Position numbers and translations under genes: made by a program | Assembly: GCA_043801745.1 (NCBI GenBank) | Contig: JAZDLR010000001.1 | Span: 24,374 to 88,373 of the forward strand | Direction of reading: 5' to 3' | DNA: 64,000 bases | From: Candidatus Komeilibacteria bacterium | GTDB taxonomy: Bacteria > Patescibacteriota > Patescibacteriia > UBA1558 > 2-01-FULL-52-15 | Shown here: positions 1,660 through 50,685 of the stretch, piece by piece | Layout: the number at the start of each line of letters is the position of its first letter | Numbering within the stretch: the stretch's first letter is position 1 | Notes under the pieces: model-generated | The model's input: the letters and a program-made list of their open reading frames with translations, nothing else | The model's database searches: none | Told to the model about the DNA's origin: nothing

Positions 1660-2073
1660 GTGAGCTTGTCTTGTCAGCGGGCAACTGATCCAGTCAAATT
1701 GCTGAAACGCAACCGGATCAAGGTTCCGATTACAGTCGCGGCGCAAGCCAATCTGGCCGACTTTATCCAGATTGGAAACCGCAGTATGGTCATGAGCAGG
1801 AAAACCCGGATTGAAAAAATCCGACAGGCCCAAGAGCAGTGGATCGGCCAGCGGGTAAAAGATAAGGGCGGGAACCGCTTTGGACGCGTCCTGTATCTGC
1901 GGATCCGGAATTCCTGCAACGATTTTGATGCCAAAGACCGAGTCACTCCGTACCGCATTCCGTTTCTCGCCTACGTTATCTGGGATTACGGGCCGGCCAA
2001 ATCGGTCGGCCTCAGCACACTCGAACTGGTGGCCAAAAAGGGGGAGGCACCGTGTCTCAAGTTAAAACAATAG
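1660..2073 (+). CDS. hypothetical protein, first gene of a GC-rich cassette
   Basis: GTG start 5 nt after the RBS ggagg (1651-1655). The ORF is 137 aa, about 52-55% GC against about 40% for the neighbouring ychF, and has no recognisable motif. Confidence 0.5.
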   Translation: MSLSCQRATDPVKLLKRNRIKVPITVAAQANLADFIQIGNRSMVMSRKTRIEKIRQAQEQWIGQRVKDKGGNRFGRVLYLRIRNSCNDFDAKDRVTPYRIPFLAYVIWDYGPAKSVGLSTLELVAKKGEAPCLKLKQ

Positions 2074-2420
2074 TCCGCGATCGATTCACGACCAAGGATG
2101 GCGTCACCGTCACTCTTCCTTCGCCTGGAGACGTGATCAAGATCACCATGCTAGAATCCAACGATCGACGTCGCCCAGTCGGCAGAGTAATGCAACTGAT
2201 CGTGTTAACTGTCGATATGAGTGGTCCTTTCAGAAACGTAGTCATTAAGACCAACCATCCTGAGCGTCATAATGACACCGAGAGCTTTCAACTTAGTGAC
2301 GACGGTAAATGGATGACCTCTCCAGTCATTTACCTGAAGTGTAATCTGGAGATCATCGGCTCACTCATCATTCCTTTCCAGCCAGGCAGTTATCGGCCGG
2401 AAACCGATGTCGACATGTGA
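2052..2420 (+). CDS. hypothetical protein, tandem paralogue A (122 aa)
   Basis: GTG start after the RBS gggggagg. Shares the motifs ITMLESNDRRRPVG, VIKTNHPE and FQLSDDGKW with the next ORF. Confidence 0.5.
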   Translation: MSQVKTIVRDRFTTKDGVTVTLPSPGDVIKITMLESNDRRRPVGRVMQLIVLTVDMSGPFRNVVIKTNHPERHNDTESFQLSDDGKWMTSPVIYLKCNLEIIGSLIIPFQPGSYRPETDVDM

Positions 2421-2439
2421 AACCTGCAAGGAGCGAGTC

Positions 2440-2808
2440 ATGACCAGAGCCAAAACAAGAAGTCGTGCGAAGCCGAAAGACAAGAAGCTGATTCTGCCCA
2501 AGCGCCTGGATACGGTCATGATCACCATGTTAGAGTCTGACGGTCGTCGTCGTCCCGCTGGTCTGGAGATGCACCTGCTCGTATGGTGCGCCAGCAAGCG
2601 TGACCAAAAGGGTAATGCTGTGATCTGGACAAATGACCCGGATTATTTCCGCCGCGTTCTGGCCTTCCGCCTTGGAGCAGACGGTCAGTGGCGAATCGGT
2701 CGCTCCCGAAAGAAAGTCGAAATCAAGATCCAAGGATCACTCCTTGACGCAGCCAAGATGCCGCAGCGGCCAACGGGCTTTCAGGCCGGAGCCACATTCG
2801 CTCGCTGA
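2440..2808 (+). CDS. hypothetical protein, tandem paralogue B (122 aa)
   Basis: ATG at 2440 follows the RBS aaggag; the ORF-track start at 2407 has no RBS. Carries ITMLESDGRRRPAG, VIWTNDPD and FRLGADGQW, matching paralogue A. Confidence 0.5.
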   Translation: MTRAKTRSRAKPKDKKLILPKRLDTVMITMLESDGRRRPAGLEMHLLVWCASKRDQKGNAVIWTNDPDYFRRVLAFRLGADGQWRIGRSRKKVEIKIQGSLLDAAKMPQRPTGFQAGATFAR

Positions 2809-5488: not shown

Positions 5489-7987
5489 TTATATTAAAAC
5501 CAACGACGTCAGTTCATCCTCCGCTTCCTTGAAACGCATCAGACGCACACCTTGCGTGGCGCGGCCCAAGATAGAAACGGATTTGATTGGCATACGGATA
5601 ACCTGACCCATCTTAGAAATAATAATAGCGTCGCCGTCATGCTTGCTGCTGATAATTCGCACCGCTTTTATCTCACCGGTCTTAGGCGTAACATTAGCTG
5701 TCTTGACGCCTGATCCGCCACGGCCCTGAACTTTATATTCTTTCACCGGCGTACGTTTACCGTAGCCCTTACTCATAACGACTAATAACTGCTCGCCAAC
5801 CTGAATCTGTCCTTCGGGCAACAAATCCATGCCCACGATCAAATCGTTGCCTTTGAGGCGCATACCGCGCACACCGGCCGCGTTACGTCCCATTTCTCGG
5901 ATATCTTTTTCTTTGAAGCGGATAGCCTGACCTTTGGCCGAGATCAACATAATATCATCCTTACCGGTAGAAAGTTTCACCCATTGCAGGCGGTCGCCTT
6001 CTTTCAATTTCAAAGCAATCAAGCCGCTGCGGCGGATATTAGAAAACTTATCAATGCCCACGCGCTTGATCAGACCATGCTCAGTAACCATCACCATATA
6101 CTTGTAAAGTCTGAAATCAGCGCTCTGTAAAATAGAAGAAACTTTTTCTTCCGGGCCAAGCTGCAGGAAATTCACAATATTAGTGCCCTTAGCCGTACGT
6201 GAGGCCGGCGGCACATCATAAGCTTTCAATTGGAACACCCGTCCGCGCGTAGTGAAAAACATCAGATCATCATGAGTATTGGTGGCCAGGAAAAATTCCA
6301 CCTGATCCTCCTCTTTCGTGGTTAAACCGATGACTCCTTTACCGCCCCTGGCCTGACTCTTGAAAGTATCCGGCGGCAAACGTTTAATGTAACCGTCATG
6401 GGTAATGGTGACAACTGCCGGCTCATTGGGAATTAAATCTTCTGTCGTCATTTCTCCGACTCCACCCTTGACTACCCGGGTCCGGCGCTCATCACCAAAT
6501 TTTTCTTTCAAATATTTTAATTCCTCTACGATGATGCTGGTTATCTTCTTCTCGCTCTTAAGAATATCCAGCAACTCCTTTATCAAAGTCTGCTTCTCTT
6601 TTAATTCTCCCTCAATTTTCAAACGCTCCAGATTAGCCAAGCTCTGCAGACGCATTTCCAAAATGGCTGTGGCCTGACGGTCGGACAATTTAAACTTAGT
6701 AATCAGATTAACCTTAGCTACATCCTTATCTTTAGAAGCGCGGATAGTTTTAATCACCGCGTCAATCTTATCCAGGGCCATAACCAAGCCTTCCAAAATG
6801 TGCGCCCGGTCTTTAGCTTTTTCCAGATCAAATTCGGTGCGGCGGCGCACCACCACGCGGCGGTGTTTGAGATATTCTTCTAAAAAGTTCTTCAGCGTCA
6901 ACACCCGGGGCTGTAAGCCGTCAACCAAAGCTAATAAATTAGCGTGAAAAGTTTCTTGCAGCTGTGTATGCTTGTAAAGGTTATTTAATACCTTCTTGGG
7001 ATAAGCATCTTTCTTTAATTCAACTACCACGCGTACGCCGTCGCGGTCAGATTCATCGCGTAAATCTTTGATACCTTCTACTTTCTTATCACGCACCAGG
7101 TTGGCAATCGCTTCCACCAAAGTTGATTTATTAACCTGATAAGGAATGGAAGTAATAATAATACGAAATTGCCCTTCTTTGGTTTCTTCAATTTCCGCTT
7201 CGCCGCGTATGACAATACCGCCCTTACCAGTCGAATAAGTCGCCTTGATATCATTCCAATTATAAATCACGCCGCCAGTCGGAAAATCCGGACCCTTAAC
7301 AAATTCCATCAGGTCATCAACATCACAATCAGGATGGTCAGTTAAATAAATAATGGCGTCAACTAATTCCGTCATATTGTGCGGCGGAATACTAGTCGCC
7401 ATACCGACGGCAATACCGACGCTGCCATTTAATAACAAGTTAGGAGCTTTGGCCGGCAGGACCGAAGGCTCTATTTGTGAACCGTCATAATTGGGAATAA
7501 AGTTGACGGTATTCTTCTCAATATCAGTCAGCATTTCTTCGGCCAAAGGACGCAGCTTGGCTTCGGTATAACGCATGGCCGCCGCACTATCACCGTCCAT
7601 TGATCCGAAGTTGCCCTGACCGTTGACCAACTCATAACGCATGGAGAAATCCTGGGCCATGCGCACCATTGATTCATAAATAGCGCTATCACCATGAGGA
7701 TGGTATTTTCCCATCACTTCTCCGACCACAGTGGCTGACTTACGGAATTTCGCTCCCGGCTTCAAGCCGATATTCCACATGGCGTACAAGACGCGGCGGT
7801 GAACCGGCTTCAAACCATCACGCACATCCGGCAAAGCCCGCGCCACAATAACACTCATGGCATAGTCCAGATAGGATGTCTGCATTTCCTCCACCAACGG
7901 CTGCAACACTAACGTCTCACCACGAGATTGCTCGGGCTTAACAGCGCCGGATTGATTACCTTTATTCTTTTTAATTAATCTGGCCAT
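5489..7987 (-). CDS. gyrA: DNA gyrase subunit A
   Basis: [28 protein letters not shown] with the active-site Tyr region, and C-terminal beta-pinwheel repeats. Length 832 aa. Confidence 0.95.
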
Positions 7988-12498: not shown

Positions 12499-13545
12499 GT
12501 GAATCGGAATGCTCGCGACATCGCTGTGGCCTGCTTTATCGGCGGGTCAGCTCTGGTGCTACTGTCACTGATCCTAATACCTACACTGTGGTGGCTAGCT
12601 TTTCCGGCCGGTGCAGCCATTGGTTACTTTGGTTGGCGTTTCAGTCAGTCTGTGGCCGGCTTCAAGCTGGCCTGGACCCGCTACTGGCGAGGACTGGATC
12701 TGCAAGAAACTCTGACCGATATCAAAGATGTTTCTACGGCCTTGAGCCGAGCGATCGTGGCAGTAATTGCTACACATCTGTTGGGCGTTCTTGGCTTGAT
12801 CTCTGGCATGGTTCTGTTATGCCTGCTTGCGATTGTCAACAACGGACAGACGCTCAAGGCAGACTTTATACCCCTGTACAAGGAAGGGCTTACTGAATTT
12901 ATCAAGCTGACCCCATTCCTCACTCATCATTGGGGCTGGCTGATTCTGTGGTTTTCCGTGATTACTTTTGTCGGATATATGTTCCTGGCAATGTCCGCCG
13001 AAAGTCTGTTCTACCAACTCGCGAAGCGGAAGCAACATCTTGTTCACGACCTGGTCAGTGAACACGGCAATTACGACCACCATCCGGAGGTTAGAATTTC
13101 CACCTCACGGTTATTCTTCTATGCCTTACGCTTTGTGCTCTATGGCTGGCTAGTCTGGTATCTCGTACCAGGAACTATTTTTCTTGTCAGACACCTTATC
13201 AGAGGCGTTGCCTGGCTAGTGCTGAAGTTGGCGATTCTCCTGATAATTAAACTGCCAATTCTCCTGTTTTGGTGCCTGATCGGCCTCCCGGGGTTCATCT
13301 GGAATATCTTCCGCTTCATCCACACGCGGGAACGGCTAGTGGTGGCGGTGGATACTTTCCTTGGTGGTGGAGCAGTTGCCTGGTGGCTACATCAGTCCCA
13401 GCTTCAGCTGCCGCTGTGGCAGAATCTGCTGGCTGTGATTTTCGGTGGGCTAGCTGCCAGCATCATAGGAGTGGTCAACTATCAGTTGGTTGGCGTCAAG
13501 TGGCTCAAAACACTTCCGTCGGCCACTGAACGTTCCGAGATTTAA
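12499..13545 (+). CDS. hypothetical polytopic membrane protein (GC about 52%)
   Basis: GTG start 6 nt after the RBS aaggag. Several predicted transmembrane helices. Confidence 0.5.
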   Translation: MNRNARDIAVACFIGGSALVLLSLILIPTLWWLAFPAGAAIGYFGWRFSQSVAGFKLAWTRYWRGLDLQETLTDIKDVSTALSRAIVAVIATHLLGVLGLISGMVLLCLLAIVNNGQTLKADFIPLYKEGLTEFIKLTPFLTHHWGWLILWFSVITFVGYMFLAMSAESLFYQLAKRKQHLVHDLVSEHGNYDHHPEVRISTSRLFFYALRFVLYGWLVWYLVPGTIFLVRHLIRGVAWLVLKLAILLIIKLPILLFWCLIGLPGFIWNIFRFIHTRERLVVAVDTFLGGGAVAWWLHQSQLQLPLWQNLLAVIFGGLAASIIGVVNYQLVGVKWLKTLPSATERSEI

Positions 13546-17325: not shown

Positions 17326-19970
17326 TTACTCTAACTTCACCCTAGCATCAGCCAACTTCTTCTTTACTTCGTCCACCACCTTTCGCGGCGCACGGGAAGT
17401 AAAATTACTATCGGCTAATTTGGCTTCTAAATCGGCAATATATTTTTTCAATTCGGTCTGGTCAACGCTTTTCTCAACTCCCTGAATATCGGTAATTAAT
17501 CTAAACCAACTACCTTTTAGTTCCAGCTTTGATTCCACCTGATCTACCAGCTTCACGCGGCCTAGTGTTTCAATAAATGGCTTCAACGAATCGATCTTTG
17601 GCTGACCAATATACTGTACCTGACTAATCGTAGCCGCTGCTACTTTATTTTCCGCGCGGGCATTACGTAATACGGTCACAATTTCCTGCAATTTCTTCAT
17701 CTCTTCCGCTGCCCCGGTTACCGAGCCCCGATTACCGGTTACTGACGCCTCCTCCGGCCACTGCTCAATCATCAACAACTTATCCTTATTCACCTGTCCC
17801 CAAATTACTTCAGTCACAAACGGAATAAACGGATGCCAGAGCTTAAGTAGATTCTGCAACAAATATAATAATAAGCCATCGCGGTCTTTTTTGGTCTCGG
17901 GTTTAATCCGATTCTCAATTTTCGCAAGCTCGAGATACCAATCCGCGAACTTAGACCAGGTAAAATCGTAAAGTTTTTCCGCGGCCAGAGAAAACATTTT
18001 TTCGTTTAATAAATTGGTTACTTCCGTCACTAACCCGGTATACTCGTACCAAATCCAATAATCTATGTCACCGGATAAAACCGGCAGTTCTTCGATTAAT
18101 TTCGGCTGTTCAACACTGGTTAAGATAAAGCGGGAAATATTCCACAGCTTATTAATAAAGTTGCGGTAGCCCTGAATCTTTTCCGTGTAAAATTTAGAGT
18201 CACTGCCAGGACTAATACCGGCAATTAAACTCAAACGCAATGAATCCGCGCCATACCGACGGACAATATCCATCGGATCAATGCCATTACCTAAGGACTT
18301 AGAAAACTTTTTGCCTTCCGTATCGCGCAACATACCGTGGAAATAAACTTCCCGAAACGGAATTTGATCCAGAGCATACGTGGACATCATAATCATGCGT
18401 GCCATCCAGAAAAACAGCAGTTCATAACCCATCTGCATCCAGGCTGTCGGATGATACTGCTTCAAATCAGGAGTTTCTTTTGGCCAGCCGAGAGTGCTGA
18501 AAGTCCAAGTGCCGGAGGAAAACCAAGTATCAAGAGTATCTTCATCTTGCTGCCAGCCATCGCCAATTGGCGGTGTTACTCCGACGTACATTTCGGAGGA
18601 GTTAGTAGAAAGAAGCAAGGAGGAAGGGTTATCTTCCCTAGCTTCTTTCTCCTTTCTCCTGTCCTATACCAAACCGGAATCCTGTGGCCCCACCAAATCT
18701 GCCGGCTAATACACCAATCATGTAAATTATCTATCCACTGTAAATAACTTTTGCTAAAGCGCTCGGGCTGAATCGCAATTATATTCTCTTTCTTGCCACC
18801 GTGCCCAGTAGTTACTGCTTCACGCATCAGATCTTTCAGACTTTTTCCTTTTTTAGGAATCTGCTTATTGACATCAACAAACCACTGCAGTTTAATCTGC
18901 GGTTCCACTGGCACGTTGCCGCGGTCACTGATGGCCACGCGGTGAAGATAATCTTTTTTCACGTCATAAACTAAACCTTTTTTCTCAAGTTTCTGAACAA
19001 TCTTAGCTCGGGCTTCGCTAATGCTTAAACCCGCGAATTCTCTGGCAATAGGCAGCATTTTTCCGTCAAAGCCAATAATCTGCACTTTATCTAATTTATG
19101 CCGTTCAGCAATATCAAAGTCAACGCTGTCATGCCACGGCGTAATGGTCATGGCGCCAGTGCCAAATTCCGGATCAATAACTTTATCCTTAATAACCGTG
19201 GCCTTCACCGGACCGTTAATCCATTCGCAGTCAAAAGTATCACCATGCTTATATTTCCAATAACGCTTATCATCCGGATGCACCACGACATATTTATCGC
19301 CCAATTTAGTTTCCGGCCGGGCCGTAGTAATGATAAACGGCCCAAAGTGAAAATAATATAAGGGAATATTTTCTTCCTGCCAAACCAGTTCATCATCAGA
19401 AACCGTGGTCGCTAGTTTCGGATCCCAGTTAACGATCCGGTGTCCACGGTAAATCAAGTTATCATTATACATCCGGATAAACATCTCATTTACTGCCGCT
19501 GATCTCTGCTCATCAAAAGTATAAGCCAACCGTGACCAATCACAGCTGGTACCCATAATTCTAATTTGCTTTAATATCGTTTCCCGTGATTTATCCGCGT
19601 AATCTTTGATTAGCTGTAATAATTTCTCGCGACCCAATTCTGTCCGTGGATCTTTATATTTACCCGAAGCAATTAATTCTTTCTCTACCCGTGCCTGCGT
19701 GGCTACGGCCGCGTGATCAGTACCGGGCAGTAACAAAGTTTTCTTGCCCAGCATGCGTTGATAGCGGATCTGTAAATCCATCAGAGCATTTTCCATCGCA
19801 TGGCCCAAATGTAAAACTCCGGTCACATTTGGCGGCGGCATCATAATGGCATAGGGCTCACCTAAACTCGTGGCTAATTTATCCGGATTAAAATATCCTG
19901 AACTTTCCCAGATATGATAAATATCTGATTCGTAATTCGCTGGGTTATATATTTTTGGTAATTCTTTCAT
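17326..19970 (-). CDS. valS: valine--tRNA ligase, split by a frameshift into two ORFs (18576..19970 and 17326..18618)
   Basis: The N-terminal ORF carries PPPNVTGVLHLGHA (HIGH) and WCISRQIWWGHRIPVWY. The C-terminal ORF carries DTLDTWFSSG and KFSKSLGN (KMSKS). The frames change within a purine-rich/pyrimidine-rich segment of about 74 nt between the IPVWY and EMYVGV codons. Confidence 0.85.
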
Positions 19971-20506: not shown

Positions 20507-21127
20507 CTAGCTGGCAGGGCTGATACGGACAGCGGCGTAAAGGACCTCAAATTCCTGCAGCTTATCTACCCATATCGGCCCCACACTCAAACGTCCAGCA
20601 TCTCTATAAATATTGGCCACACGCTCCCGCTCGGCAAAGAGCCACGTAGTTCCGAGAGCAACTACGGTGGCCCTAGGATTGAAACCGGGAAGCGCTCCGA
20701 GAGCCAACAGCTCTTCGGCTCTGGCCGGCCGGTATCCAACACGCCTCATGCGGCACACTGCTTCCCGCGGACTGACGCTCCGCGAGAAGGGGAAAAGCTC
20801 TATGACAACCGGCACCTTTCCCCGGCCCCTGAGTTTGATGTCGAAGGCCGCCGTATCAAGGCAACGGTGCGTGTAACTGCCCAAATCCATCATGTGTGAC
20901 AGATCTAGGGAATAGTCCACAATTACGGAGAAAATCTGACGACCAGCGGTAAGTGATTCGGCAATTAGTTTGGCGATCTTCTTGCGAAGGTCGCCATCCG
21001 TGTGCACATTGCTCAACGCTTCGTCGGTCCTCTCACCGACCAGAGCACGAACGTCCTCGGCGATCCATTTGAACATTTCGCCCAAAACGCCTACATTGCT
21101 CACGAATCCACTCCAAGAACAAGCCAT
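20507..21127 (-). CDS. hypothetical protein in a GC-rich single-gene cassette (about 57% GC)
   Basis: A 206-aa ORF bracketed by palindromic elements at 20391-20432 and 21337-21365. No recognisable motif. Confidence 0.5.
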   Translation of the reverse strand: MACSWSGFVSNVGVLGEMFKWIAEDVRALVGERTDEALSNVHTDGDLRKKIAKLIAESLTAGRQIFSVIVDYSLDLSHMMDLGSYTHRCLDTAAFDIKLRGRGKVPVVIELFPFSRSVSPREAVCRMRRVGYRPARAEELLALGALPGFNPRATVVALGTTWLFAERERVANIYRDAGRLSVGPIWVDKLQEFEVLYAAVRISPAS

Positions 21128-21895: not shown

Positions 21896-22936
21896 CTACG
21901 TTAAACGCAATTGCGGATCAAATCTCAACTTCTTCCAATTCTCCTTCAACCCTTTATCCTTCCGATGATAATAGGCCGCGGCGGCAATCATGGCGGCGTT
22001 ATCACCGGTAAATTCCACTGCCGGAATTAGTACGGACAACCCTAGGGTTGTCCCTACAGCCCGACATCTGATGCCTAATTCCTTATTCGCACTAACGCCG
22101 CCCACAACCATTAAGGATTTAACTTTATATTGTTTGGCTGCGCGCTCCATTTTTTTAATTAATACATCACACGCAGCTAACTGAAATGACGCGCAAATAT
22201 CATTAACTGTGTTCTTCCCTAACTTCTTTCTACTTGCTTCTTGCTTCTGAACATAATAAAGCACCGCAGTTTTCAAACCAGCAAAACTAAAATTAAAATT
22301 ATCCTTGTCAATCATCGGCCGTGGGAAATCAATGGCCGCCGGGTTTCCTTCGCTGGCTAATTTAGCCACAATCGGACCGCCCGGATAACCAAGATCCAAA
22401 ATTTTGGCTACTTTATCAAAAGCTTCGCCCGCCGCGTCATCCAGTGTCTGACCAATTAATTGATATTTACCGTGCCCCTTCATTAAAACTAATTCCGTAT
22501 GCCCCCCGGAAACGATCAAAACCAGTGCCGGGAAAATCTTTTTGTCGTTCTTAAATAATTCCGGATAGGTTAGCCAGTTGGCGTAAATATGCGCTTCCAA
22601 ATGATTAATCCCAACTAAAGGTTTATTTAATGAATAAGCCAGTGACTTAGCTGTTTCCGTGCCAACCATAAGCGAAGTAATTAATCCCGGACCCCTAGTC
22701 ACGGTCAATAAGTCAGCTTCTCTGACCGCTTTTAATCCAATACTTTTATCTAATAGGGGTAGTAATACTTCCAAGTGTTTACGGGCCGCCACTTCCGGCA
22801 CCACACCACCGTATTTTTTATGAATATTGATCTGCGACGCTACAAGATGTTGCTGTAAATCAAAACCGCTCTTAGTTACTTGCAATAAGGCAAAAGAGGT
22901 CTCGTCGCAGGATGTTTCAATGGCAAAAATTCGCAT
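21896..22936 (-). CDS. tsaD: tRNA N6-adenosine threonylcarbamoyltransferase TsaD (Kae1/YgjD family)
   Basis: MRIFAIETSCDETS..., GINHLEAHIY, VSGGHTELV and GDNAAMIA are diagnostic of TsaD. Confidence 0.9.
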   Translation of the reverse strand: MRIFAIETSCDETSFALLQVTKSGFDLQQHLVASQINIHKKYGGVVPEVAARKHLEVLLPLLDKSIGLKAVREADLLTVTRGPGLITSLMVGTETAKSLAYSLNKPLVGINHLEAHIYANWLTYPELFKNDKKIFPALVLIVSGGHTELVLMKGHGKYQLIGQTLDDAAGEAFDKVAKILDLGYPGGPIVAKLASEGNPAAIDFPRPMIDKDNFNFSFAGLKTAVLYYVQKQEASRKKLGKNTVNDICASFQLAACDVLIKKMERAAKQYKVKSLMVVGGVSANKELGIRCRAVGTTLGLSVLIPAVEFTGDNAAMIAAAAYYHRKDKGLKENWKKLRFDPQLRLT

Positions 22937-23002
22937 AAAAATATACTAACATGCTCCTCTATATTTCAAAAGGGGCGAACCATGCTGGTCCGCCCCCTGT
23001 TC

Positions 23003-23365
23003 TTATCCTCCCATTTGCTGACTCTGTACCTTGATGTGTTCCACCAGCCGTCTTAGATCCGATGAAACTGTCAGTCTGGCAGCCAGTTCCATTCCCGCCC
23101 TGGTCACGATCGGCGCTGTAGCTCCTAAATGAAGCAGTCCACGTTGCCGCAAACTGGCGACCTCTATGTCCAGTTGCCTCAGCCGAAGCAGAGGATCAGT
23201 GGCAAACATTGGTCGTTGCCATAAGCCACCAGCCGTAGGATCTTGTCCTAAGAAATCACCAATCAACTGACGGACTAACCTCCACGGCGGCGAGCGTCCT
23301 TCTTGCTGGCTCAAAGCCAACACACAGAGAACCGCCTCGTCAGTTGAAATCTCCATCACCTGCAA
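23003..23365 (-). CDS. hypothetical protein (GC-rich), winged-helix-like; paralogous to the next ORF
   Basis: A 120-aa ORF with a helix-turn-wing pattern LRQRGLLHLGATAPIVTRAGMELAARL, comparable to LEQRSLIIRHRGCLGWELTEQGIELGQQL in the 23379 ORF. Confidence 0.4.
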   Translation of the reverse strand: MQVMEISTDEAVLCVLALSQQEGRSPPWRLVRQLIGDFLGQDPTAGGLWQRPMFATDPLLRLRQLDIEVASLRQRGLLHLGATAPIVTRAGMELAARLTVSSDLRRLVEHIKVQSQQMGG

Positions 23366-23378
23366 CGCATCACCTCCA

Positions 23379-23798
23379 TCAGTGAGACACTACTCCCGGA
23401 AATCCGTGGGCATCGGCTTTCGGAATGGATGAGCACATGATATCCACCAGCTCACTGATTACGCTTTCCAGAGGAAGACAATCAGCCAACTGCTGACCCA
23501 GTTCAATCCCTTGCTCGGTCAGCTCCCAGCCCAGACAGCCCCGATGACGGATGATCAAACTGCGCTGTTCCAAACTGGTCAGATCCCGCCGCAAGCTGGC
23601 AACCAGCTGCCTTTCATCCGAAGGCAAATAACCGTAGATAGCCAACTCCGTGACTTCGCGTTTGCGGGCGTCGGCAATCAGTGCACGTCCCAGTTCACAC
23701 ATAGTGGGATAAGCCGGTCTTTCCGTCCAAGCCGACAGTTGATAGAACAGGCGCAGAAGCTGCAGCTGACAATCTCCAGCCAAATCCTGAAGAGACAC
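23379..23798 (-). CDS. hypothetical protein (GC-rich), winged-helix-like
   Basis: A 139-aa ORF; see the paralogue at 23003..23365. Confidence 0.4.
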   Translation of the reverse strand: MSLQDLAGDCQLQLLRLFYQLSAWTERPAYPTMCELGRALIADARKREVTELAIYGYLPSDERQLVASLRRDLTSLEQRSLIIRHRGCLGWELTEQGIELGQQLADCLPLESVISELVDIMCSSIPKADAHGFPGVVSH

Positions 23799-23903
23799 AG
23801 CAATTCCCTCCGTTTGGTGGTTAGAGAAACGTTATGAAAAGTACGGAACAAAGGTGAATACTATTATTCTCCGGAAAAAAAGTCAATGTGATACAATTGG
23901 TCA

Positions 23904-24452
23904 ATGAGCATAATCATTAAACGCAGCCGCCGCAAAACTCTGCAATTATCCGTTCACCTTGTTAGAAATGGGACTTCTAACGGGGTTAATCCCGCGATCC
24001 AAATAATAGTCCGCGCTCCGCTGACACTGCCGCTGTCACGCATTCAATTATTTGTCCAACAAAAACAAGCCTGGATAAACCGGGCCATTCACAGGCAGAG
24101 CAATCGCCTCCCCTTACCGCATAGCCCGCAGGATTATAAAAAAAACAAATCTCTGGCTAGAAAAATTATCTTGGAACGTCTGAATCAATTAAATGACACC
24201 TATCAGTTACATTGGAAACGGTTGACGATCCGCAACTCCCGCACCCGCTGGGGTAGCTGTTCGCGGCAGGGAAACTTGAATTTCAATTATCGGATTATAT
24301 ATTTGCCACCAGAACTACAGGATTACGTCATTGTGCACGAACTTTGTCATTTGCAGGAGCTAAATCATGGAAAAAAATTCTGGCAGTTGGTGACCAGGGT
24401 CATCCCCAACTTTTCTGTAACACGAAAACAACTTCGACAATACAGTCTATAA
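23904..24452 (+). CDS. DUF45 / COG1451 (YgjP-like) zinc-dependent metallohydrolase carrying an in-frame palindromic-element insertion
   Basis: IIKRSRRKTLQLSV...IIVRAP at the N-terminus, and the zinc site VIVHELCHLQELNHGKKFW (HExxH). Codons for LVRNGTSNGVN are contributed by the palindromic element at 23957-23991. Confidence 0.7.
   Translation: MSIIIKRSRRKTLQLSVHLVRNGTSNGVNPAIQIIVRAPLTLPLSRIQLFVQQKQAWINRAIHRQSNRLPLPHSPQDYKKNKSLARKIILERLNQLNDTYQLHWKRLTIRNSRTRWGSCSRQGNLNFNYRIIYLPPELQDYVIVHELCHLQELNHGKKFWQLVTRVIPNFSVTRKQLRQYSL
23957..23991. repeat. palindromic element, copy 5, inserted in frame within the DUF45 gene
   Basis: ccttgttagaaatgggacttctaacggggttaatc has a degenerate left arm. It lengthens the SV...IIVRAP spacer by about 10-11 codons relative to the family norm. 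Confidence 0.55.
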
Positions 24453-24578
24453 TAATTGTTGTTTGTACCAATCTTGACATATTTATAAAGATATGTTATC
24501 TTTTTTTATTAAAACTTGTTCCAGACAATATCTGGACTTGTCTGGGTTCTTAAAACAGCCACACTCAAGGAGGTTCCA

Positions 24579-24815
24579 ATGACATCGCTTCGCAGTGGCA
24601 TTCCCCGTGGCAAAACCCGGGTCATCGGAGTTGATCTTTTCGAAGGCGGAGACTATCTGGTTGGCGACTACGACAACCCGCAGGATGCCTTTGACGTTGC
24701 TGACGATCACAACAAGAAGCGCACCGGTCCAATGAACGACGTCTACTATGTGTACGACGAAAAGGGTAACTACATTCACGGAAACGAAGATGTAGACCAG
24801 GAGGTCTGCCCGTAA
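24579..24815 (+). CDS. hypothetical small acidic protein (78 aa), upstream partner of the HD hydrolase
   Basis: ATG at 24579 follows the RBS aaggagg; the ORF-track start at 24516 has no RBS. GC about 52-55%. Confidence 0.45.
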   Translation: MTSLRSGIPRGKTRVIGVDLFEGGDYLVGDYDNPQDAFDVADDHNKKRTGPMNDVYYVYDEKGNYIHGNEDVDQEVCP

Positions 24816-24832
24816 CCAGGGAGGGCATAAAC

Positions 24833-25261
24833 ATGGTAACTTTGGAAGACACTATCGTCTTCGCTACGCAACTACACAATGGTCAAAAGGATAAGGCGGG
24901 AGCGCCGTACATCCTCCATGTCCTGCGTGTAATGTTGCAGATGAAAACCGAGCAAGAGCGCATCGTTGCCTTACTGCACGACGTCGCGGAAGACTGCAAC
25001 ATCACCTTAGAGCCGATGATGGGATTCGGCCAAGAGGTGATGGACGCCGTGGACTGTCTTACGAAGCGTCCGCAGGAAGAGCACAACTACGATGCTTTCA
25101 TTCAACGCATTGCCTCGGGTCCGGCACTAGCTCGTCGGGTGAAGATCGCGGATCTGCGGGATAACTCCGACCTCACCCGTTTTGCCCAGCCCACCGAAGC
25201 AGACCGCCGACGTTGTCTGAAATATCATCGAGCGCTCGCTATTCTCACCAGCCTTGAGTAA
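24833..25261 (+). CDS. HD-domain (p)ppGpp hydrolase-like protein (small alarmone hydrolase, RelA/SpoT HD family)
   Basis: GAPYILHVLRV...IVALLHDVAEDCNITLEPMMGFGQEV...LTKR...KIADLRDN matches the SpoT/Mesh1 HD motif series (H..HD..D, KxADRLhN). RBS gggaggg. GC-rich. Confidence 0.7.
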   Translation: MVTLEDTIVFATQLHNGQKDKAGAPYILHVLRVMLQMKTEQERIVALLHDVAEDCNITLEPMMGFGQEVMDAVDCLTKRPQEEHNYDAFIQRIASGPALARRVKIADLRDNSDLTRFAQPTEADRRRCLKYHRALAILTSLE

Positions 25262-25276
25262 CACGCATCTCTAACT

Positions 25277-25312
25277 ACCGAGAGGTCATCACGATCTCTC
25301 GGTTTAATTTTG
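25277..25312 (+). terminator. rho-independent terminator
   Basis: accgagag-gtcatcacgatc-tctcggt followed by ttaattttg. Confidence 0.55.
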
Positions 25313-25378
25313 TCCGACCTTGAAATGTGCTATTTAAAATAACAAAACAAGCTTCTCAGCTTGCTATAAATAATATAC

Positions 25379-25453
25379 TGGTGACCCCAGGGGGAATTGA
25401 ACCCCCATTGCCAGGATGAAAACCTGGTGTCCTAACCATTAGACGATAGGGCC
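25379..25453 (-). tRNA. tRNA-Glu (anticodon UUC)
   Basis: GGCCCTATCGTCTAATGGTTAGGACACCAGGTTTTCATCCTGGCAATGGGGGTTCAATTCCCCCTGGGGTCACCA folds as a cloverleaf with anticodon loop TTTTCAT and an encoded CCA. Confidence 0.85.
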
Positions 25454-25521
25454 GGAAAACGCCGTTTGACAATACCCTATTTTGTTGTTCTTATCAAGGG
25501 GCGAACAAATATCAAATTTTG

Positions 25522-25550
25522 TTGTCCTTACCGTTATTTTCCTCTATAAT
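25522..25550 (+). promoter_or_regulatory. sigma70-like promoter for hsp20
   Basis: TTGTCC at 25522-25527, a 17-nt spacer, and TATAAT at 25545-25550. Confidence 0.45.
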
Positions 25551-25556
25551 ACATTC

Positions 25557-26096
25557 ATGCTGGGCCGAAAAAAAGCTAAAAAAGAAATTAAAATTGATCA
25601 TTCTGAGGAAACTAATGATGAGTCTTTTTTTGCTTTACCCACGGCCCCGGCCAATGATGCTGCCCATAACTGGGCCGATGATGGGCCTGAGACTGCCGAC
25701 ACTGACGAATTTGGGGAGCCGGAAAATATTGCAGACACCGGATTAACCTCCTGGATCAACGAAGAAGATAAACTACCTATCGATGTTTACCAAGACGAAT
25801 CTTTCATTTACCTCAAATCGCCGGTACCGGGAGCCGATGTTAAAGACATTGATATTACTATTGAAAACGATCTCATAACCGTGCGTGTCCACCGCCAGGA
25901 AGAAGAAACTATCAGCCAAGAAGATTATTATTTTCAAGAATGCTTCTGGGGCTCGCTTTCACGTTCTATTATTTTGCCGACGGAAATTGATGCCAACGCT
26001 GTCCGGGCCAGCTTACGCAGCGGCATATTAACAATTACTTTGCCAAAAATTAACCGCTCAACAGGAACCAAAGTTTCTGTTGAAGCAGAAGATTAA
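25557..26096 (+). CDS. Hsp20/alpha-crystallin family small heat-shock protein
   Basis: The alpha-crystallin domain (IDVYQDESFIYLKSPVPGADVKDIDITIENDLITVRV...RSIILPTEIDANAVRASLRSGILTITLPK). Start placed at the ATG at 25557 downstream of the promoter. Confidence 0.75.
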   Translation: MLGRKKAKKEIKIDHSEETNDESFFALPTAPANDAAHNWADDGPETADTDEFGEPENIADTGLTSWINEEDKLPIDVYQDESFIYLKSPVPGADVKDIDITIENDLITVRVHRQEEETISQEDYYFQECFWGSLSRSIILPTEIDANAVRASLRSGILTITLPKINRSTGTKVSVEAED

Positions 26097-28871: not shown

Positions 28872-29783
28872 ATGGCCAACCGACATCTTGCCCGCACCTT
28901 AACGCTTCAAACTCTTTTTGAATGGGATTTCTACCTGGGTAAATTAGATGTGCCAGCAGCCATGGCTACTATTAAACACGAATTTGCACCTGATTTTGAC
29001 GATCAGGGTTTTAGTTTACGCTTAACTGAAGAAGTTATTGATAATCACTTTATCATTGATAAGCTGATCACTAAATTCGCGCCCGAATGGCCTTTGGATC
29101 AAATTACCTTAGTTGACCGCAACGTTTTGCGTATCGGCATCTATGAACTAAAATTTGATAAAACTATTCCACCCAAAGTCGCTATTAATGAAGCCATTGA
29201 ATTAGCCAAGACCTACGGTGGCACTTCCTCGGGAAAATTCGTCAATGGCGTCCTGGGCAGCATCTATAAAGAAATGATCCAACGCGGCGAGAAACAAACA
29301 TTAGAGAGCCAAGGCATCAAAGAAGAGTCCAGCGGCGGCATTATCTACCGGCAAGAAGACGAATCCTATAAATTCGCTCTCATCCTTGACTCCTATGGCA
29401 AGTGGACTTTCCCTAAGGGTCACGTTGATGGTAAAGAAAAACCCGAAGAGGCAGCCATCAGAGAAATCCAAGAGGAAATTGGCATCCAAAATTTGGTCAA
29501 CAAAGGACACCTGGATGATCTGCAATTAAAAGTTCACAAACCCGAACAGCAGCCTTTCCGTAAATTAGTCCACGTTTATCTTTTCGAAACTACTGATACC
29601 GATCTGAAGCCGCAGATATCCGAAGTCAAAGACGCCCGTTGGTATGATCCTCAAGAAGCCTTGGACATTATCGGCTATGAAGAAACTAAAAATATTTTCT
29701 GCCAAGTACTCGATCAATTAAAAATTCCTTATGAAAGATCTGCAACTGCTGGAAAGCAGCCTGAAGCTGAAATTCAAAAATAA
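28872..29783 (+). CDS. nusB: NusB antitermination factor fused to a C-terminal NUDIX hydrolase domain
   Basis: Residues 1-140 are NusB-like (ARTLTLQTLFEWDF...LVDRNVLRIGIYEL...INEAIELAKTYGG). Residues 160-300 carry a NUDIX box GHVDGKEKPEEAAIREIQEEIGI. Confidence 0.7.
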   Translation: MANRHLARTLTLQTLFEWDFYLGKLDVPAAMATIKHEFAPDFDDQGFSLRLTEEVIDNHFIIDKLITKFAPEWPLDQITLVDRNVLRIGIYELKFDKTIPPKVAINEAIELAKTYGGTSSGKFVNGVLGSIYKEMIQRGEKQTLESQGIKEESSGGIIYRQEDESYKFALILDSYGKWTFPKGHVDGKEKPEEAAIREIQEEIGIQNLVNKGHLDDLQLKVHKPEQQPFRKLVHVYLFETTDTDLKPQISEVKDARWYDPQEALDIIGYEETKNIFCQVLDQLKIPYERSATAGKQPEAEIQK

Positions 29784-36954: not shown

Positions 36955-38730
36955 ATGAAATTATCTCCCCGAGCAAAATTAACTCTAGCAACAGCTGAAG
37001 AAGCCGGCCGGATTTTATTATCTGAAGCCAAAAGGATCAGACACGATAAAGTGGGTCAACAAAATATTTCTATTAAAAATGACCTGACTCCGGGCAAAAT
37101 TGATCTAGTAACTTCAGTGGATAAATTATTAGATTCATATATTACTAAACAATTAAAACAAAAGTATCCTAACGATTTTTTCTTAACTGAAGAATCATAT
37201 GTTGCAACTGCTGATCGCCTAAGACTAACTCATAAATCCGTCTGGATTATTGATCCTATTGATGGGACACGGGATTTCTCGCAATTTTTACTAGGAGAAG
37301 CTAAAAAAAGACGGCAACACAGCTTTTCTATTTGCCTTGCCTGGGCTAAAAAAGGAATCTTGCAAATAGGGGCTATATATACGCCAGTTCTTTCAGAAAT
37401 CTGGGTAGCAGAAAAGGGTCGCGGCACCTGGTATAAAAAAGGTAACTCCCAATGGCGTAAATTAATCATGCAACCAAAAAAATCAGCCCGATTAACTATT
37501 GCCCTAAACTCTCATGAACGGGTAACCCATGAAAACACCCCTCAATTGGCCGGACACAAATTCGTCTTTCCCAGCTCGCTGGCTTATCGCATCGTTGGGA
37601 CAACTACTGGTCATCATGATATGTTAATTTCCTTTAAAGGCGGCAGTAAAGAATGGGACGTAGCTGCTGCCGATATTATTCTTCAAGAGGCTGGCGGTCT
37701 TTTGCTTGATGCTGACAAAAAAATGATCCGCTATAATAAACCCGATCTAGTCAACCACTTATTGCTTATTGCCGGTCATCCCAAAAATATTGATAGGTTA
37801 TTACCTCTGATTCAGAAAAAATCTTTAGCTTTAATCGGTTCAATCAGCCACTCAACTCCGCTTTATCCTGATGGTGTCCGCGAACGCTTTGGCGGTGGTG
37901 TGATCTATGGTTCAGAAACTGCGAAAAAATTAGGCTTAGATGTGCACGTCATTACTGCCGGAGCCAATGATATTGAAGGCGGTATTAAACAATTACGGAA
38001 ACAACAAATCTGGTCCGTGAGACTAAAAAGGAAATTAAGCAATAATTTTGCTAATGATTGCACCAAACCCAAAAGAATACTGAGGATGGGGTCAATTATG
38101 GAGCGCCCTATTACCAAGCGGGAATTAACGAAACATATCCCCAATGCTGACGGCTGGATTTTAAATCCGATTTATCACGAGGTTTCGCCCGACATGGTTC
38201 CGGCTAAAAGAAATTTTGTCGTCTATATGGACATACAAGGATTGACCAGAGCCGTGACCAGAGCCAGTGACGGCTACTGGCATTTAAAAGATCATAAATG
38301 GCCGGGCTGGAAACAGTGGAAAGGTAAATTAGATATCCTGCGCCTAAGTGATGAAGACGCCGAGCATATGGCTTTTCCGGCTAAATGTAAAAATCTAAAA
38401 TCCCGTCTGCACTATCTGGTAACGCAAGGATTTCCTATAGTCGTGGCTTCGCAAGGAACCAAACCAACTTTAGTGGCTACGAAAAAAGGAATTAAAGAAA
38501 TTCCGGTTACTAAAGTTGATGCTGTAGATACCGGCGGTGCTGGTGACAGTTTTAACGCCGGATTTATGGCTGGTTATTTAACTTATAAAGATCCCATCGT
38601 AGCCGCGGCTTTTGGTAATGCCGCCGCCGGCCTGATGGTCAGTGGTAAGGGCACGACAAATTGCGGCAATTGGCAGCAAGTGGAAACTAAGGCTAAACTT
38701 ATTCTCAAGAAAATTAACTATGCGCTTTGA
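36955..38730 (+). CDS. bifunctional fusion: inositol-monophosphatase/CysQ-like phosphatase (N-terminus) with a PfkB/ribokinase-family sugar kinase (C-terminus)
   Basis: N-terminal WIIDPIDGTRDF is the IMPase motif. C-terminal DTGGAGDSFNAGFMAGYL is the PfkB signature 2. Total length 591 aa. Confidence 0.65.
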   Translation: MKLSPRAKLTLATAEEAGRILLSEAKRIRHDKVGQQNISIKNDLTPGKIDLVTSVDKLLDSYITKQLKQKYPNDFFLTEESYVATADRLRLTHKSVWIIDPIDGTRDFSQFLLGEAKKRRQHSFSICLAWAKKGILQIGAIYTPVLSEIWVAEKGRGTWYKKGNSQWRKLIMQPKKSARLTIALNSHERVTHENTPQLAGHKFVFPSSLAYRIVGTTTGHHDMLISFKGGSKEWDVAAADIILQEAGGLLLDADKKMIRYNKPDLVNHLLLIAGHPKNIDRLLPLIQKKSLALIGSISHSTPLYPDGVRERFGGGVIYGSETAKKLGLDVHVITAGANDIEGGIKQLRKQQIWSVRLKRKLSNNFANDCTKPKRILRMGSIMERPITKRELTKHIPNADGWILNPIYHEVSPDMVPAKRNFVVYMDIQGLTRAVTRASDGYWHLKDHKWPGWKQWKGKLDILRLSDEDAEHMAFPAKCKNLKSRLHYLVTQGFPIVVASQGTKPTLVATKKGIKEIPVTKVDAVDTGGAGDSFNAGFMAGYLTYKDPIVAAAFGNAAAGLMVSGKGTTNCGNWQQVETKAKLILKKINYAL

Positions 38731-40701: not shown

Positions 40702-41162
40702 GAGGCCCAACCTTGTCTAAACTGATGCTACTTGCTCTTTGTAGCCCCTTTATCCATCAACATCCATTTCATTTCCTTGAGGCTTGAAACCTCATACCGG
40801 AGTAGCTGCCGGTAACAATCTAATGAGTTGAGAACAAACAGTAGTATCTGTAGCTCGGGTATTTCTGTTTTTTCTTAACGCCGAATCCGTGGCCAAAGGA
40901 TAAATGGAACCTAAATAAATTTCTGACGTTCCGATTCGAAGACCGCGAATGGCGTTAACCCGCCGTATCGAGCTCAGCTCGAGAAGGAGGGTTGTCCGAC
41001 ATTAAACGAACAAGAGAAGAGCACCTTGACAACTGAATCAACAGCAACACCATTAGATAGTGAATAACAATTGAAATGTGACGGTTAATGTCAATTCGTT
41101 GCTGCGTTCTGCGCAGTAACATAACATGAATTTTTTTCGAGCCTACAAGCTCACTCTAACAA

Positions 41163-42775
<1,613 letters not shown>

Positions 42776-42995: not shown

Positions 42996-43694
42996 ATGAA
43001 ATCGAAAAAAATAGGAAATATATCGCCACCATCAAAACTTCGCTACTTATATTCTTTAATAATAATTGGCGGATCCTGTTTTGCTTTTCTATTTTACAAT
43101 GAATCAATAAGTCATTTCGATCTTAGTCTTGCTGGGGCAGCATTTATCTTAGGGGCTTTATACTTTCTTGGGATCATAAATATAATTTTCTTGATACTAT
43201 CCGTGATGTCCAAACAAAAAGGCAAACCTTATCACCTAGCATTTGCTATTTGCTTGGTCCTGCTTATTATTTTTTTCATGCAGTGTCTGAATCAAATCCG
43301 TGACTTTAAAAATATAGCAATTAAAAGCGACAATGATAAAGAAGAATACATAAATGCATCTATTTCTGCTGATAAGGCAAGCCTCTTATCCGATTGTAAT
43401 GGTATGCAACAATATTCGCAAGAAATCTGGCAAAGATGTATTAATAGAACCCTGAGCAACAAATCTCAACTAACTGAATGTAAAGATCAAGTGGGAAATT
43501 CCGAGGGTATGAATTACAGCAACAATCTAAATGACGCAACCAAGGGTGCGCCTCTTTACGTTTACTGCTACGGGGCCTTAGCGCTTAATCAAAACAATCC
43601 CTCTATCTGTGATCAATTATCCGTTAAAGGATCCGATAATAACCAGAATGTTCAATACTGTCGGTGGTATTATTCTAATTATCATGAGAAGTAG
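42996..43694 (+). CDS. hypothetical membrane protein, strongly AT-rich, with a Cys-rich C-terminal domain
   Basis: A 232-aa ORF with transmembrane helices near the N-terminus and GC well below the window average. Confidence 0.45.
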   Translation: MKSKKIGNISPPSKLRYLYSLIIIGGSCFAFLFYNESISHFDLSLAGAAFILGALYFLGIINIIFLILSVMSKQKGKPYHLAFAICLVLLIIFFMQCLNQIRDFKNIAIKSDNDKEEYINASISADKASLLSDCNGMQQYSQEIWQRCINRTLSNKSQLTECKDQVGNSEGMNYSNNLNDATKGAPLYVYCYGALALNQNNPSICDQLSVKGSDNNQNVQYCRWYYSNYHEK

Positions 43695-49564: not shown

Positions 49565-50092
49565 CTACTTTAAATCTTTCCGCAAATCCTCTAATACATT
49601 CCGGAAATTCGGGAAAGCTAAATTTGGAGGAAGATTATCCAGAGGAAACCATTCTAGAGCATCAACGTCATCATCGGCTTTTATGTCTCCTTCAATTGTA
49701 CCCCGATAGGCCAAAAGTAGCACTGATGTTTTCAAACCGCCAAAATGATACCAACTATGCACCGCGGTTAATAACTTCAAAGGAGTAAATTCCACATGCA
49801 TTTCTTCCCTAATCTCCCGCTTAATGGCTGCCACCGGATCCTCGCCCCAATCGACAAATCCACCCGGCGGACCCCAAGTACCTTTATCCGGCTCCTTAGC
49901 TCGGCGCGCTAACAAAACCTGCAACTTTGTATTCACTATTAATACCCCCACGGTCGCTTTGGGGTTTTGATAAAAAGAATAGCCACACTGCCAGCAGTGT
50001 AAACAATTATCCGCAATATCTTCCGGCCGATATTTTACCCCGCACTTCGGACAATATTTAAAAAAATCTTTGGGCGTCAGCGACGAATTCAT
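49565..50092 (-). CDS. NUDIX hydrolase with an N-terminal zinc ribbon (NudC-like architecture)
   Basis: CPKCGVKY...CLHCWQCGYSF zinc ribbon plus the NUDIX box GGFVDWGEDPVAAIKREIREEMHVE. Confidence 0.7.
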   Translation of the reverse strand: MNSSLTPKDFFKYCPKCGVKYRPEDIADNCLHCWQCGYSFYQNPKATVGVLIVNTKLQVLLARRAKEPDKGTWGPPGGFVDWGEDPVAAIKREIREEMHVEFTPLKLLTAVHSWYHFGGLKTSVLLLAYRGTIEGDIKADDDVDALEWFPLDNLPPNLAFPNFRNVLEDLRKDLK

Positions 50093-50685
50093 AGTTTTTT
50101 TCTTTTATTAGCTAAGGCCGCGGGAATTGGAATAAAACGTATTTCTGACCAAGACCAGATCTCTTCATCGGTCACGTTAAAATAATGCTGGTAAGCCACT
50201 TCCACACTGCCGTGTAAAGCCCGGGACCAATCTAACTCTAATTGCGCTGCCGTCTGTTTAACTAATAATTCATCATCAGCTTCAATCTCACAAAAAGTCG
50301 GTATCCAGGGCCAGGTATCAATAGTAATTTCTACTTCATTTAATTTCCAAGTCTCCCTTTTAGTTTCTTGGACATTGTAAGAAATTAAACCAATGCTTAG
50401 CAACAAATCTTTGGCCCTATCATAATTATCAATAACGACCTCTACTTCTTTGGTTCCCTGCAACGAACGGTCATTAAGTTGCTTATAGGCCAGAGTTATC
50501 TTATCTCCCTCGTTACGGATACGAACCCAGCCGCCAATCTTTTCCAAACGCTTATCCGGAAAATCAAAGTTTTCTCTAATCATAGGGCGTTCAGCCATAA
50601 CCAAAAAAGCTCCAAGCTGCTTCAAAGTCTGACGCAACTTAGAGCTATCAATATCTAGAAACTTGGCTTCAATTTCGGTTTTCAT
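50089..50685 (-). CDS. CYTH-domain protein (triphosphate tunnel metalloenzyme / CyaB-like)
   Basis: The N-terminal EIEAKF signature of the CYTH family. The stop overlaps the NUDIX start in ATGA. Confidence 0.6.
   Translation of the reverse strand: MKTEIEAKFLDIDSSKLRQTLKQLGAFLVMAERPMIRENFDFPDKRLEKIGGWVRIRNEGDKITLAYKQLNDRSLQGTKEVEVVIDNYDRAKDLLLSIGLISYNVQETKRETWKLNEVEITIDTWPWIPTFCEIEADDELLVKQTAAQLELDWSRALHGSVEVAYQHYFNVTDEEIWSWSEIRFIPIPAALANKRKKL

Follow-up and report, generated by a model that had tools for sequence, protein, structure and literature searches.

A predicted (p)ppApp hydrolase of the Aph1 family and a small candidate partner in a strain-specific cassette of a Komeilibacteria genome

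The stretch of DNA analyzed here, 64,000 nt of a contig from Candidatus Komeilibacteria (candidate phyla radiation, CPR/Patescibacteria), carries a short two-gene cassette between a DUF45 gene and a tRNA-Glu gene. We refer to the whole stretch as the window, and genome-wide statements are limited to these 64 kb. The second gene of the cassette (24833-25261, + strand) encodes a 142-aa protein that, by sequence and predicted fold, is a stand-alone HD-domain hydrolase of the Aph1 family, with (p)ppApp hydrolysis as its very probable activity. The first gene (24579-24815, + strand) encodes a 78-aa protein, here called small78, from an unannotated conserved family that is linked to hydrolases of the HD_4 domain class. 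Both open reading frames (ORFs) had been called at these positions in an earlier reading made from the letters of the DNA alone (the sequence-only reading), and they stand as called. The enzyme family is known, and the arrangement of genes around it is new. As a whole, the locus is best explained, with moderate confidence, as an orphan (p)ppApp-detoxifying cassette with small78 as an accessory partner.

The assignment of the 142-aa protein rests on its consistent similarity to one founding member of the family. Among sequences in the Protein Data Bank (PDB), the best match was 7SMG, Aph1 of Bacteroides caccae (phmmer, E 1.9e-27, query residues 4-137 to Aph1 8-140); SpoT was next at 2e-9, and Rel, Mesh1, and PaSAH likewise scored no better than 1e-9. 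An AlphaFold2 (AF2) model of the monomer (predicted local distance difference test, pLDDT, 94.7) folded the 142 aa into 8 helices. Its top Foldseek match was again 7SMG (template modeling (TM) score 0.88, root-mean-square deviation 1.5 Å, 43% identity, E 1.6e-10), and MESH1 came next at 2e-5. Compared with any ppGpp hydrolase, the E-value of 7SMG is better by about 18 orders of magnitude for sequence and by 5 for fold. The authors of the Aph1 study delimit the family by the C-terminal 53 residues, Aph1 Y90-E143 (Ahmad et al., PNAS 2023, PMC10083569), and homology is found in this family-defining part, where Y86-A134 of the hydrolase aligns with Aph1 Y90-A137 (phmmer).

The catalytic machinery appears complete. 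The sequence-only reading had named substitution of the HD residues as the observation that would count against hydrolysis, and none is replaced: H15, H29, H49-D50, E53-D54, D107, and N111 correspond to Aph1 H19, H33, H53-D54, E57-D58, D110, and N114. The motif series that it quoted (HxGQ, PYILH, ALLHDVAED, KIADLRDN) is real, and its identification of a stand-alone RelA/SpoT-type HD hydrolase without a synthetase domain, that is, a small alarmone hydrolase (SAH), is upheld. The search that it proposed with a hidden Markov model (HMM) of the RelA/SpoT HD domain gave a borderline result, as Pfam HD_4 scored 26.5 bits, just under its cut-off of 27.2, and covered the N-terminal half alone. A precomputed PF13328 match is present in many close homologues of the hydrolase, and TIGR00691 (spoT_relA) matched at 1.8e-13, also over the N-terminal half.

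The probable substrate differs from that given in the sequence-only reading, which had described the protein as (p)ppGpp-hydrolase-like; the alarmone hydrolase part of that description stands, while (p)ppGpp as the substrate probably does not. According to the Aph1 study, the family carries a signature of six residues, D24, R96, D116, R119, K133, and Y134 (PMC10083569). All six are identical in the hydrolase (D20, R92, D113, R116, K130, and Y131), and each is kept in 111-120 of its 120 nearest homologues. The same source reports that D24 and R119 set adenine specificity in Aph1, with R119 sterically excluding guanine, and that a D24R/R119A double mutant gained ppGpp activity. TtRel contacts guanine through R43, R44, and S45; Aph1 and the hydrolase share a D-K-A triad at those positions (D20-K21-A22 here). 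The guanine-contacting Arg pair of ppGpp-hydrolyzing SAHs is therefore absent, and a bulky residue, R116, occupies the position of Aph1 R119. Because the protein belongs, by sequence and model, to the Aph1 family and carries the D-K-A triad together with R116, its predicted substrate is (p)ppApp rather than (p)ppGpp.

In a competing view, this enzyme would reset the stringent response by hydrolyzing (p)ppGpp, as an SAH akin to Mesh1, PaSAH, or RelH. The borderline HD_4 score and the TIGR00691 match speak for it, the modeled fold also matches MESH1, PaSAH, and RelH at TM 0.75-0.83, and, while all 12 Aph homologues assayed hydrolyzed ppApp, two of the 12 had modest ppGpp activity (PMC10083569). 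We nevertheless consider it quite unlikely, given the replacement of the TtRel guanine contacts by D-K-A, the presence of R116, and the large lead of 7SMG in both sequence and fold. The model also has eight helices, as does Aph1, a compact single domain, as against nine or more in ppGpp hydrolases (PMC10083569).

For an Aph1-family enzyme, homology suggests that a divalent metal (Mg2+ or Mn2+) would be bound through H29, H49-D50, and D107, and that the 3'-pyrophosphate of ppApp or pppApp would be removed to yield ADP or ATP and PPi. D20-K21-A22 and R116 (Aph1 D24 and R119) would exclude guanine, so no action on (p)ppGpp would be expected. In the same scheme, small78 may bind the hydrolase as an accessory subunit with a regulatory or targeting function, a role that we propose because HD_4 proteins are the sole recurrent genomic partner of its family.

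The sequence-only reading had described the first protein as small and acidic, which fits its pI of 4.4 and its 16 Asp and Glu against 8 Lys and Arg residues. Sixty-three close homologues, mostly of 76-83 aa, share 55-71% identity with it, and a profile search of 1.84 billion representatives assembled a family of 361 clusters, nearly all of them stand-alone proteins of 65-100 aa. The family ranges across CPR and other uncultured bacteria, with distant relatives on 7 viral contigs. An alignment of the 63 homologues gave a mean column identity of 53%, with R14, D30, A37, N45, R48, and Y59 invariant. The structure prediction suggested earlier for this protein yielded a confident AF2 model (pLDDT 89.7) of ββαββ topology that has no significant match in the PDB: Foldseek returned nothing significant (best E 0.29), as did single-sequence and profile searches of PDB sequences. 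There was likewise no match in Pfam, NCBIfam, or PADLOC, and a marginal one in PHROGs (phrog_7937, unknown function, E 0.025). T4 Dmd was set aside as a fold match because it was non-significant (TM 0.5). A Tis1-like structural immunity protein was also rejected, as neither a PDB fold nor a profile-sequence match was significant. Other architectures of the domain were seen, including DUF6508 followed by small78 (P0321), a tandem double small78 (P0294), and small78 with a conserved C-terminal extension of about 100 aa and unknown function (P0277, P0295, and P0300).

The small78 family is linked to HD_4 hydrolases both statistically and by gene fusion. Neighboring ORFs of small78 were clustered without a prior at 94 loci, comprising the window, L001-L007, 80 loci from metagenomes, and 7 viral ones, with a few contigs represented twice, and HD_4 proteins emerged as the sole recurrent neighbor family. 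They lie near small78 at seven of the 80 loci, representing four independent lineages and three HD_4 subfamilies, and at none of 57 control loci (804 kb in total) examined with the same HD_4 seeds; for four independent lineages, this enrichment has P ~ 0.006. At L071 and L072, small78 is followed after 83 bp by the gene for a 231-aa HD_4 protein, and at L097 after 43 bp by one for about 197 aa, both co-directional. Orthologues of the latter lie 1-2 kb from small78 in other arrangements (L079 and L087), and a long Rel lies 2 kb away at L139. On L143, an AT-rich, phage-like contig, an Aph-like gene occurs 1.1 kb upstream of a distant small78 gene. Where the HD_4 gene is adjacent, it is always downstream of small78.

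The fusion preserves this order. P0317 (265 aa) joins a small78 domain (residues 4-71) to an HD_4 domain (83-200, 62 bits) in the gene order of the operon, and its ORF is continuous on its contig. We propose to recognize a small78-HD_4 module wherever small78 immediately precedes an HD_4 protein or forms its N-terminal part, an arrangement present in the window, at L071, L072, and L097, and in P0317. This recurring arrangement was not mentioned in the literature examined and was not found in the libraries searched. When 119 proteins related to the P0317 HD domain were searched with the small78 HMM, no further fusion came up. Within this HD domain's relatives P0335-P0350, many members of about 290 aa have an N-terminal HTH_24 domain (PF13412) where P0317 has small78; this HD_4 subfamily appears to accept interchangeable N-terminal modules.

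Several observations weigh against a dedicated partnership. About 90% of the sampled small78 loci have no HD_4 gene within 4 kb, small78 being mostly solitary. Viewed from the Aph side, small78 was absent near Aph at five close homologue loci and, within 4 kb, at 80 viral loci; with none at 85 loci, the pairing is therefore exceptional from that side. The confident fusion comes from one 2-kb metagenomic contig, and two other HD_4 proteins (P0364 and P0376) are weak candidates for fusions, their N-terminal regions aligning collinearly with small78 at hhalign E 0.014-0.037. Finally, the HD_4 partners outside the window carry R at the Aph1-D24 position, the (p)ppGpp-type residue, and because of this the link of small78 is to the HD_4 domain class and not to ppApp.

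These figures bear most directly on the possibility of chance adjacency, in which two unrelated accessory genes would share a promoter in one variable slot. The Aph-side absences and the many solitary small78 genes among housekeeping genes are what chance would produce, as was an early sample in which the pairing was seen at none of six homologue loci (three small78 and three Aph). From that sample the pair was first judged to be no module, a verdict overturned by the larger one. Chance does not readily account for a sole recurrent neighbor found in four lineages and three subfamilies against zero in the control, for a fusion with the same domain order, or for two genes that have equal GC content at third codon positions (GC3, 0.62 in both) and 17 nt between the stop codon of the first and the ATG of the second. 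We therefore regard chance adjacency as rather doubtful and lean slightly toward small78 being a physical or functional partner of the hydrolase. The broader proposal is that stand-alone HD hydrolases of the RelA/SpoT type have in the small78 family a dedicated partner or regulatory subunit that controls alarmone destruction, with the pairing with Aph serving (p)ppApp defense in CPR bacteria. We think it somewhat unlikely.

As for the role of the cassette, no alarmone synthetase is in view. No ORF of at least 80 aa in the window matched the Pfam RelA_SpoT synthetase domain, and a six-frame regular-expression search of the 64 kb found no synthetase motif in a real ORF, in agreement with the remark in the sequence-only reading that no synthetase partner was visible. 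The window covers only part of the genome, and a synthetase may be encoded outside these 64 kb, which would tell against an orphan status. The hydrolase could serve in orphan detoxification of, or immunity to, (p)ppApp delivered by toxins of the Tas1/Apk type from neighbors, the host bacterium, or phage. Because no synthetase is in view, this role, which is analogous to the enzymatic immunity provided by Aph1, seems the likeliest, and we put it forward tentatively; clearance of endogenously made (p)ppApp is an alternative. A literature search returned nothing relevant on ppApp or ppGpp in Patescibacteria.

The cassette could also be the antitoxin or immunity part of a toxSAS-SAH (FaRel-ATfaRel) or Apk2-Tis1-Aph1 system, with small78 as a structural immunity protein. 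Small acidic proteins encoded upstream are typically antitoxins or immunity proteins. Aph1 itself is the third gene of a cluster of toxin, Tis1-like immunity gene, and Aph1, and the order of a small protein followed by Aph resembles BcTis1-Aph1. This explanation is nonetheless unlikely. The window offers no synthetase to act as toxin, and small78 is itself too small to be one; it resembles neither Tis1 nor any PDB entry in sequence or fold; it is better conserved than immunity proteins, which evolve fast, would be expected to be; and HD_4 proteins of the (p)ppGpp type are also among its neighbors. PADLOC, run on five local proteins, gave no match. The toxSAS-antitoxin and phage-defense associations raised in the sequence-only reading thus found no counterpart in the 64 kb, where neither a synthetase, a PADLOC match, nor a phage gene was detected.

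Phages provide a further context to be weighed, namely that the cassette is a phage or prophage remnant carrying a counter-defense or host-takeover gene beside a tRNA. The hydrolase matches phrog_990 ("metal-dependent phosphohydrolase") at E 2.4e-42, and full-length homologues with up to 49% identity occur in 252 phage records. Distant small78 relatives sit on the 7 viral contigs, the phage-like L143 has both genes, and the cassette adjoins a tRNA. On the other hand, Pfam found no integrase, transposase, or phage structural or replication gene among window ORFs of at least 80 aa, no att-like direct repeat of the tRNA-Glu 3' end occurs in 22900-25600, and the segment spans just 0.93 kb. For both genes, the nearest homologues, at about 60-70% identity, come from small genomes, where housekeeping genes surround them, and not from phages. 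A phage origin of this kind is accordingly very unlikely, and we retain the orphan detoxification cassette as the preferred explanation.

The layout of the cassette is compact. A sigma-70-like promoter, TTGACA-17 nt-TATCTT with a TG extension (24474-24502, + strand; 10/12 matches in a consensus scan), precedes a Shine-Dalgarno sequence, AAGGAGG (24567-24573, +), that was read from the sequence 5 nt before the small78 ATG at 24579, in line with the strong ribosome-binding site reported for this gene. A second one, GGGAGGG (24819-24825, +), likewise read from the sequence, lies 7 nt before the hydrolase ATG at 24833. Behind the hydrolase gene, an intrinsic terminator (25277-25313, +; terminator scan and sequence) consists of an 11-bp stem with a 5-nt loop (stem-loop 25277-25303) and a T-run. 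It is followed by tRNA-Glu(UUC) (25379-25453, - strand; ARAGORN, Rfam 64 bits), which is convergent with the cassette, 100% identical in relatives, and forms the right edge of the variable slot; the terminator and tRNA gene had both been noticed before. Positions 24474-25313 are a self-contained bicistronic cassette from promoter to terminator, and small78 and the hydrolase gene are likely co-transcribed. The promoter-like site falls within the 99-aa call of the National Center for Biotechnology Information (NCBI) for the first gene; because of this, and because homologues are mostly 76-83 aa long, the ATG at 24579 (78 aa) is the better start. In a search for riboswitches or other RNA elements in 24400-25480 (Rfam, E up to 1), the tRNA alone matched. 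Two copies of a TTTTGTTGTYCTTA-like motif lie upstream of hsp20 (25471-25493 and 25508-25530), with a related copy after the DUF45 stop codon (24456-24471), so that the copies bracket the cassette and the tRNA; they may represent a promoter or operator element, or may be fortuitous.

Comparison with relatives shows that the site between DUF45 and tRNA-Glu is a recombination-prone slot and that the cassette is its strain-specific cargo. Five related genomes with TsaD 73-79% identical were used, and the gene order is conserved: tsaE, tsaD, two to four small winged-helix-like ORFs, DUF45, the slot, tRNA-Glu, hsp20, a small ORF, VanW, and NusB. Only three of these relatives cover the slot (L013, L014, and L016). 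DNA homology to them stops inside DUF45 (about 24391) and restarts exactly at tRNA-Glu (25378/9) with 100% identity (blastn). The segment from the DUF45 stop codon to the 3' end of tRNA-Glu (24453-25378) has no blastn match in any of the three, and tblastn found neither small78 nor Aph at their loci. The comparison at tRNA-Glu that had been proposed earlier thus identifies the pair as accessory genes, not core genes. In place of the cassette, L013 has a 232-aa SDR gene, and L014 and L016 have unrelated ORFs of 143 aa and 211 aa. Because the cargo differs in each sampled relative, the cassette is probably horizontally acquired. The tRNA-Glu gene is inverted relative to tsaD in L014 (7048-7122) and L016 (7709-7783) as compared with the window and L013, and in L013, 28 nt of the tRNA 5' end are present again (7066-7093) about 110 bp from the tRNA; both are signs of repeated rearrangement at the site.

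Base composition adds moderate support for accessory status. GC content is 0.523 for small78 and 0.543 for the hydrolase gene, and with window ORF means of 0.456 ± 0.052 for GC and 0.468 ± 0.078 for GC3, the cassette has a GC3 z-score of about +2. This rise is real but modest, and it counts against the interpretation that six to eight other window ORFs are equally GC-rich.

The sequence-only reading had drawn a larger island, 23003-25261, described as GC-rich throughout. Only the 0.93-kb cassette within it proved strain-specific. DUF45 (23904-24452, + strand) has a host-like GC of 0.444, contrary to that description, and is syntenic in five relatives. The insertion noted in this DUF45/YgjP-like metallopeptidase does exist, as 11 aa (HLVRNGTSNGV, about residues 18-28) not in three relatives; its supposed repeat character does not, with Tandem Repeats Finder reporting none in 22900-25600. 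Between tsaD and DUF45 lies a block (23003-23798, - strand) of two to four small, fast-evolving ORFs that lack Pfam matches, are weakly winged-helix-like, and vary in number per relative (L013 8645-9937; L014 8506-9952; L016 9245-9924). The GC of this block exceeds that of its flanks in all genomes (0.48-0.58 vs 0.41-0.48). In two relatives, homologues of its tsaD-proximal ORF occupy the corresponding position, and the two members taken for paralogues are barely similar (BLASTP E 0.012). The block is a conserved but diversifying gene array that, like DUF45, is ancestral in this clade. Of the usual features of a tRNA island, presence/absence polymorphism and atypical GC occur for 24453-25378 alone, and neither an integrase nor an att repeat was seen.

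The surroundings are an ordinary CPR housekeeping region. Pfam, run on every ORF of at least 80 aa joined into polyproteins, identified YchF, RuvB, GyrA, S1, FtsH, PilB, ValRS, TsaE, TsaD, VanW, NusB, RNase III, SMC, S16, KhpA, PolA, TruB, UvrB, RuvA, FemAB, and Mur ligase, and the window holds one 16S rRNA gene and seven tRNAs. The 16S rRNA gene (41157-42773, +) is 1617 nt long against a 1533-nt model, about 85 nt extra. Between it and a tRNA-Ile at 44092 lies an AT-rich (GC 0.35) ORF for a membrane-like protein of 232 aa (42996-43694). Because 23S rRNA was not found in the 64-kb window, the rRNA operon is unlinked or interrupted. ValRS is encoded in two overlapping ORFs, 17326-18618 (-) and 18576-19970 (-), that hold the N-terminal catalytic and C-terminal anticodon-binding parts; this reflects a frameshift, a sequencing error, or a true split of the gene. 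Unusual fusions join NusB to a C-terminal NUDIX domain (28872-29783, +) and an inositol-monophosphatase-family domain to a PfkB kinase C-terminal region (36955-38730, +). A stand-alone CYTH (triphosphate tunnel metalloenzyme) protein at 50089-50685 (-) is another nucleotide-polyphosphate enzyme in the window. GC-rich ORFs (0.52-0.56) lacking Pfam matches elsewhere, at 1660-2808 (+), 20507-21127 (-), and 12499-13545 (+), may be further accessory genes; the small ORFs 2052-2420 and 2407-2808 look paralogous through a common ITMLES..RRRP motif.

Recognition of (p)ppApp as the product of toxins and as a possible signal is recent, and the Aph family, which has many orphan members, was first defined in 2023. 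The locus described here is an intact Aph enzyme in a CPR genome, present as a strain-specific cassette. If the broader proposal for small78 is right, an ultra-small CPR bacterium without a visible synthetase would be equipped to survive (p)ppApp attack from its host, its neighbors, or phage, and (p)ppApp warfare and immunity would extend to episymbiotic bacteria. A real partnership would give the unannotated small78 family its first function and would offer, in two small soluble proteins, a testable handle on the regulation or targeting of stand-alone alarmone hydrolases. Without such a partnership, the locus would simply add another orphan Aph gene to the family.

The closest known system is Aph1 itself (BACCAC_01146, PDB 7SMG), the founder of the (p)ppApp hydrolase family (PMC10083569). 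Like Aph1, the Komeilibacteria hydrolase consists of a single HD domain (about 145 aa, eight helices); the two are 43% identical overall and share all catalytic and all six specificity residues. Further hallmarks of the Aph1 family are assembly into tetramers, a much faster turnover of ppApp than of ppGpp in vitro, and protection against Apk toxins. Unlike it, Aph1 sits in a prophage toxin-immunity cluster (MuF-Apk2, Tis1-like, Aph1), whereas here there is neither a toxin nor a Tis1-like gene and the upstream gene encodes a different, undescribed small protein; the host is also from a CPR phylum (Komeilibacteria) that the main text of the study does not name. Closer in setting are the orphan Aph homologues, as most members of the family lie away from toxins, beside translation, cell-wall, and DNA-repair genes (clusters A-L; PMC10083569). 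The nearest homologues of our hydrolase are likewise in housekeeping contexts, and a conserved small upstream partner is not mentioned in the main-text sections of that study.

Other hydrolases share part of this profile. Mesh1, PaSAH, RelH/CgSAH, and LlSAH have the same HD_4 fold and catalytic machinery, but they are dimers of longer chains (about 175-200 aa with at least nine helices) and have Arg at the base contact, where the hydrolase here has D-K-A along with R116. The phage phrog_990 proteins, such as Salmonella phage PVPSE1 gp220 and HD_4 proteins of S. pneumoniae prophages, are full-length homologues with 43-49% identity; their genes are found in phage genomes, with no small78 within 4 kb at the 80 viral loci. 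SAH antitoxins of toxSAS systems such as ATfaRel (Jimmy et al. 2020, PMC7229694) share a bicistron with a synthetase toxin of a kind not found in the window. Nevertheless, they are stand-alone HD hydrolases that enzymatically neutralize a toxic alarmone, as we propose for the hydrolase of this cassette.

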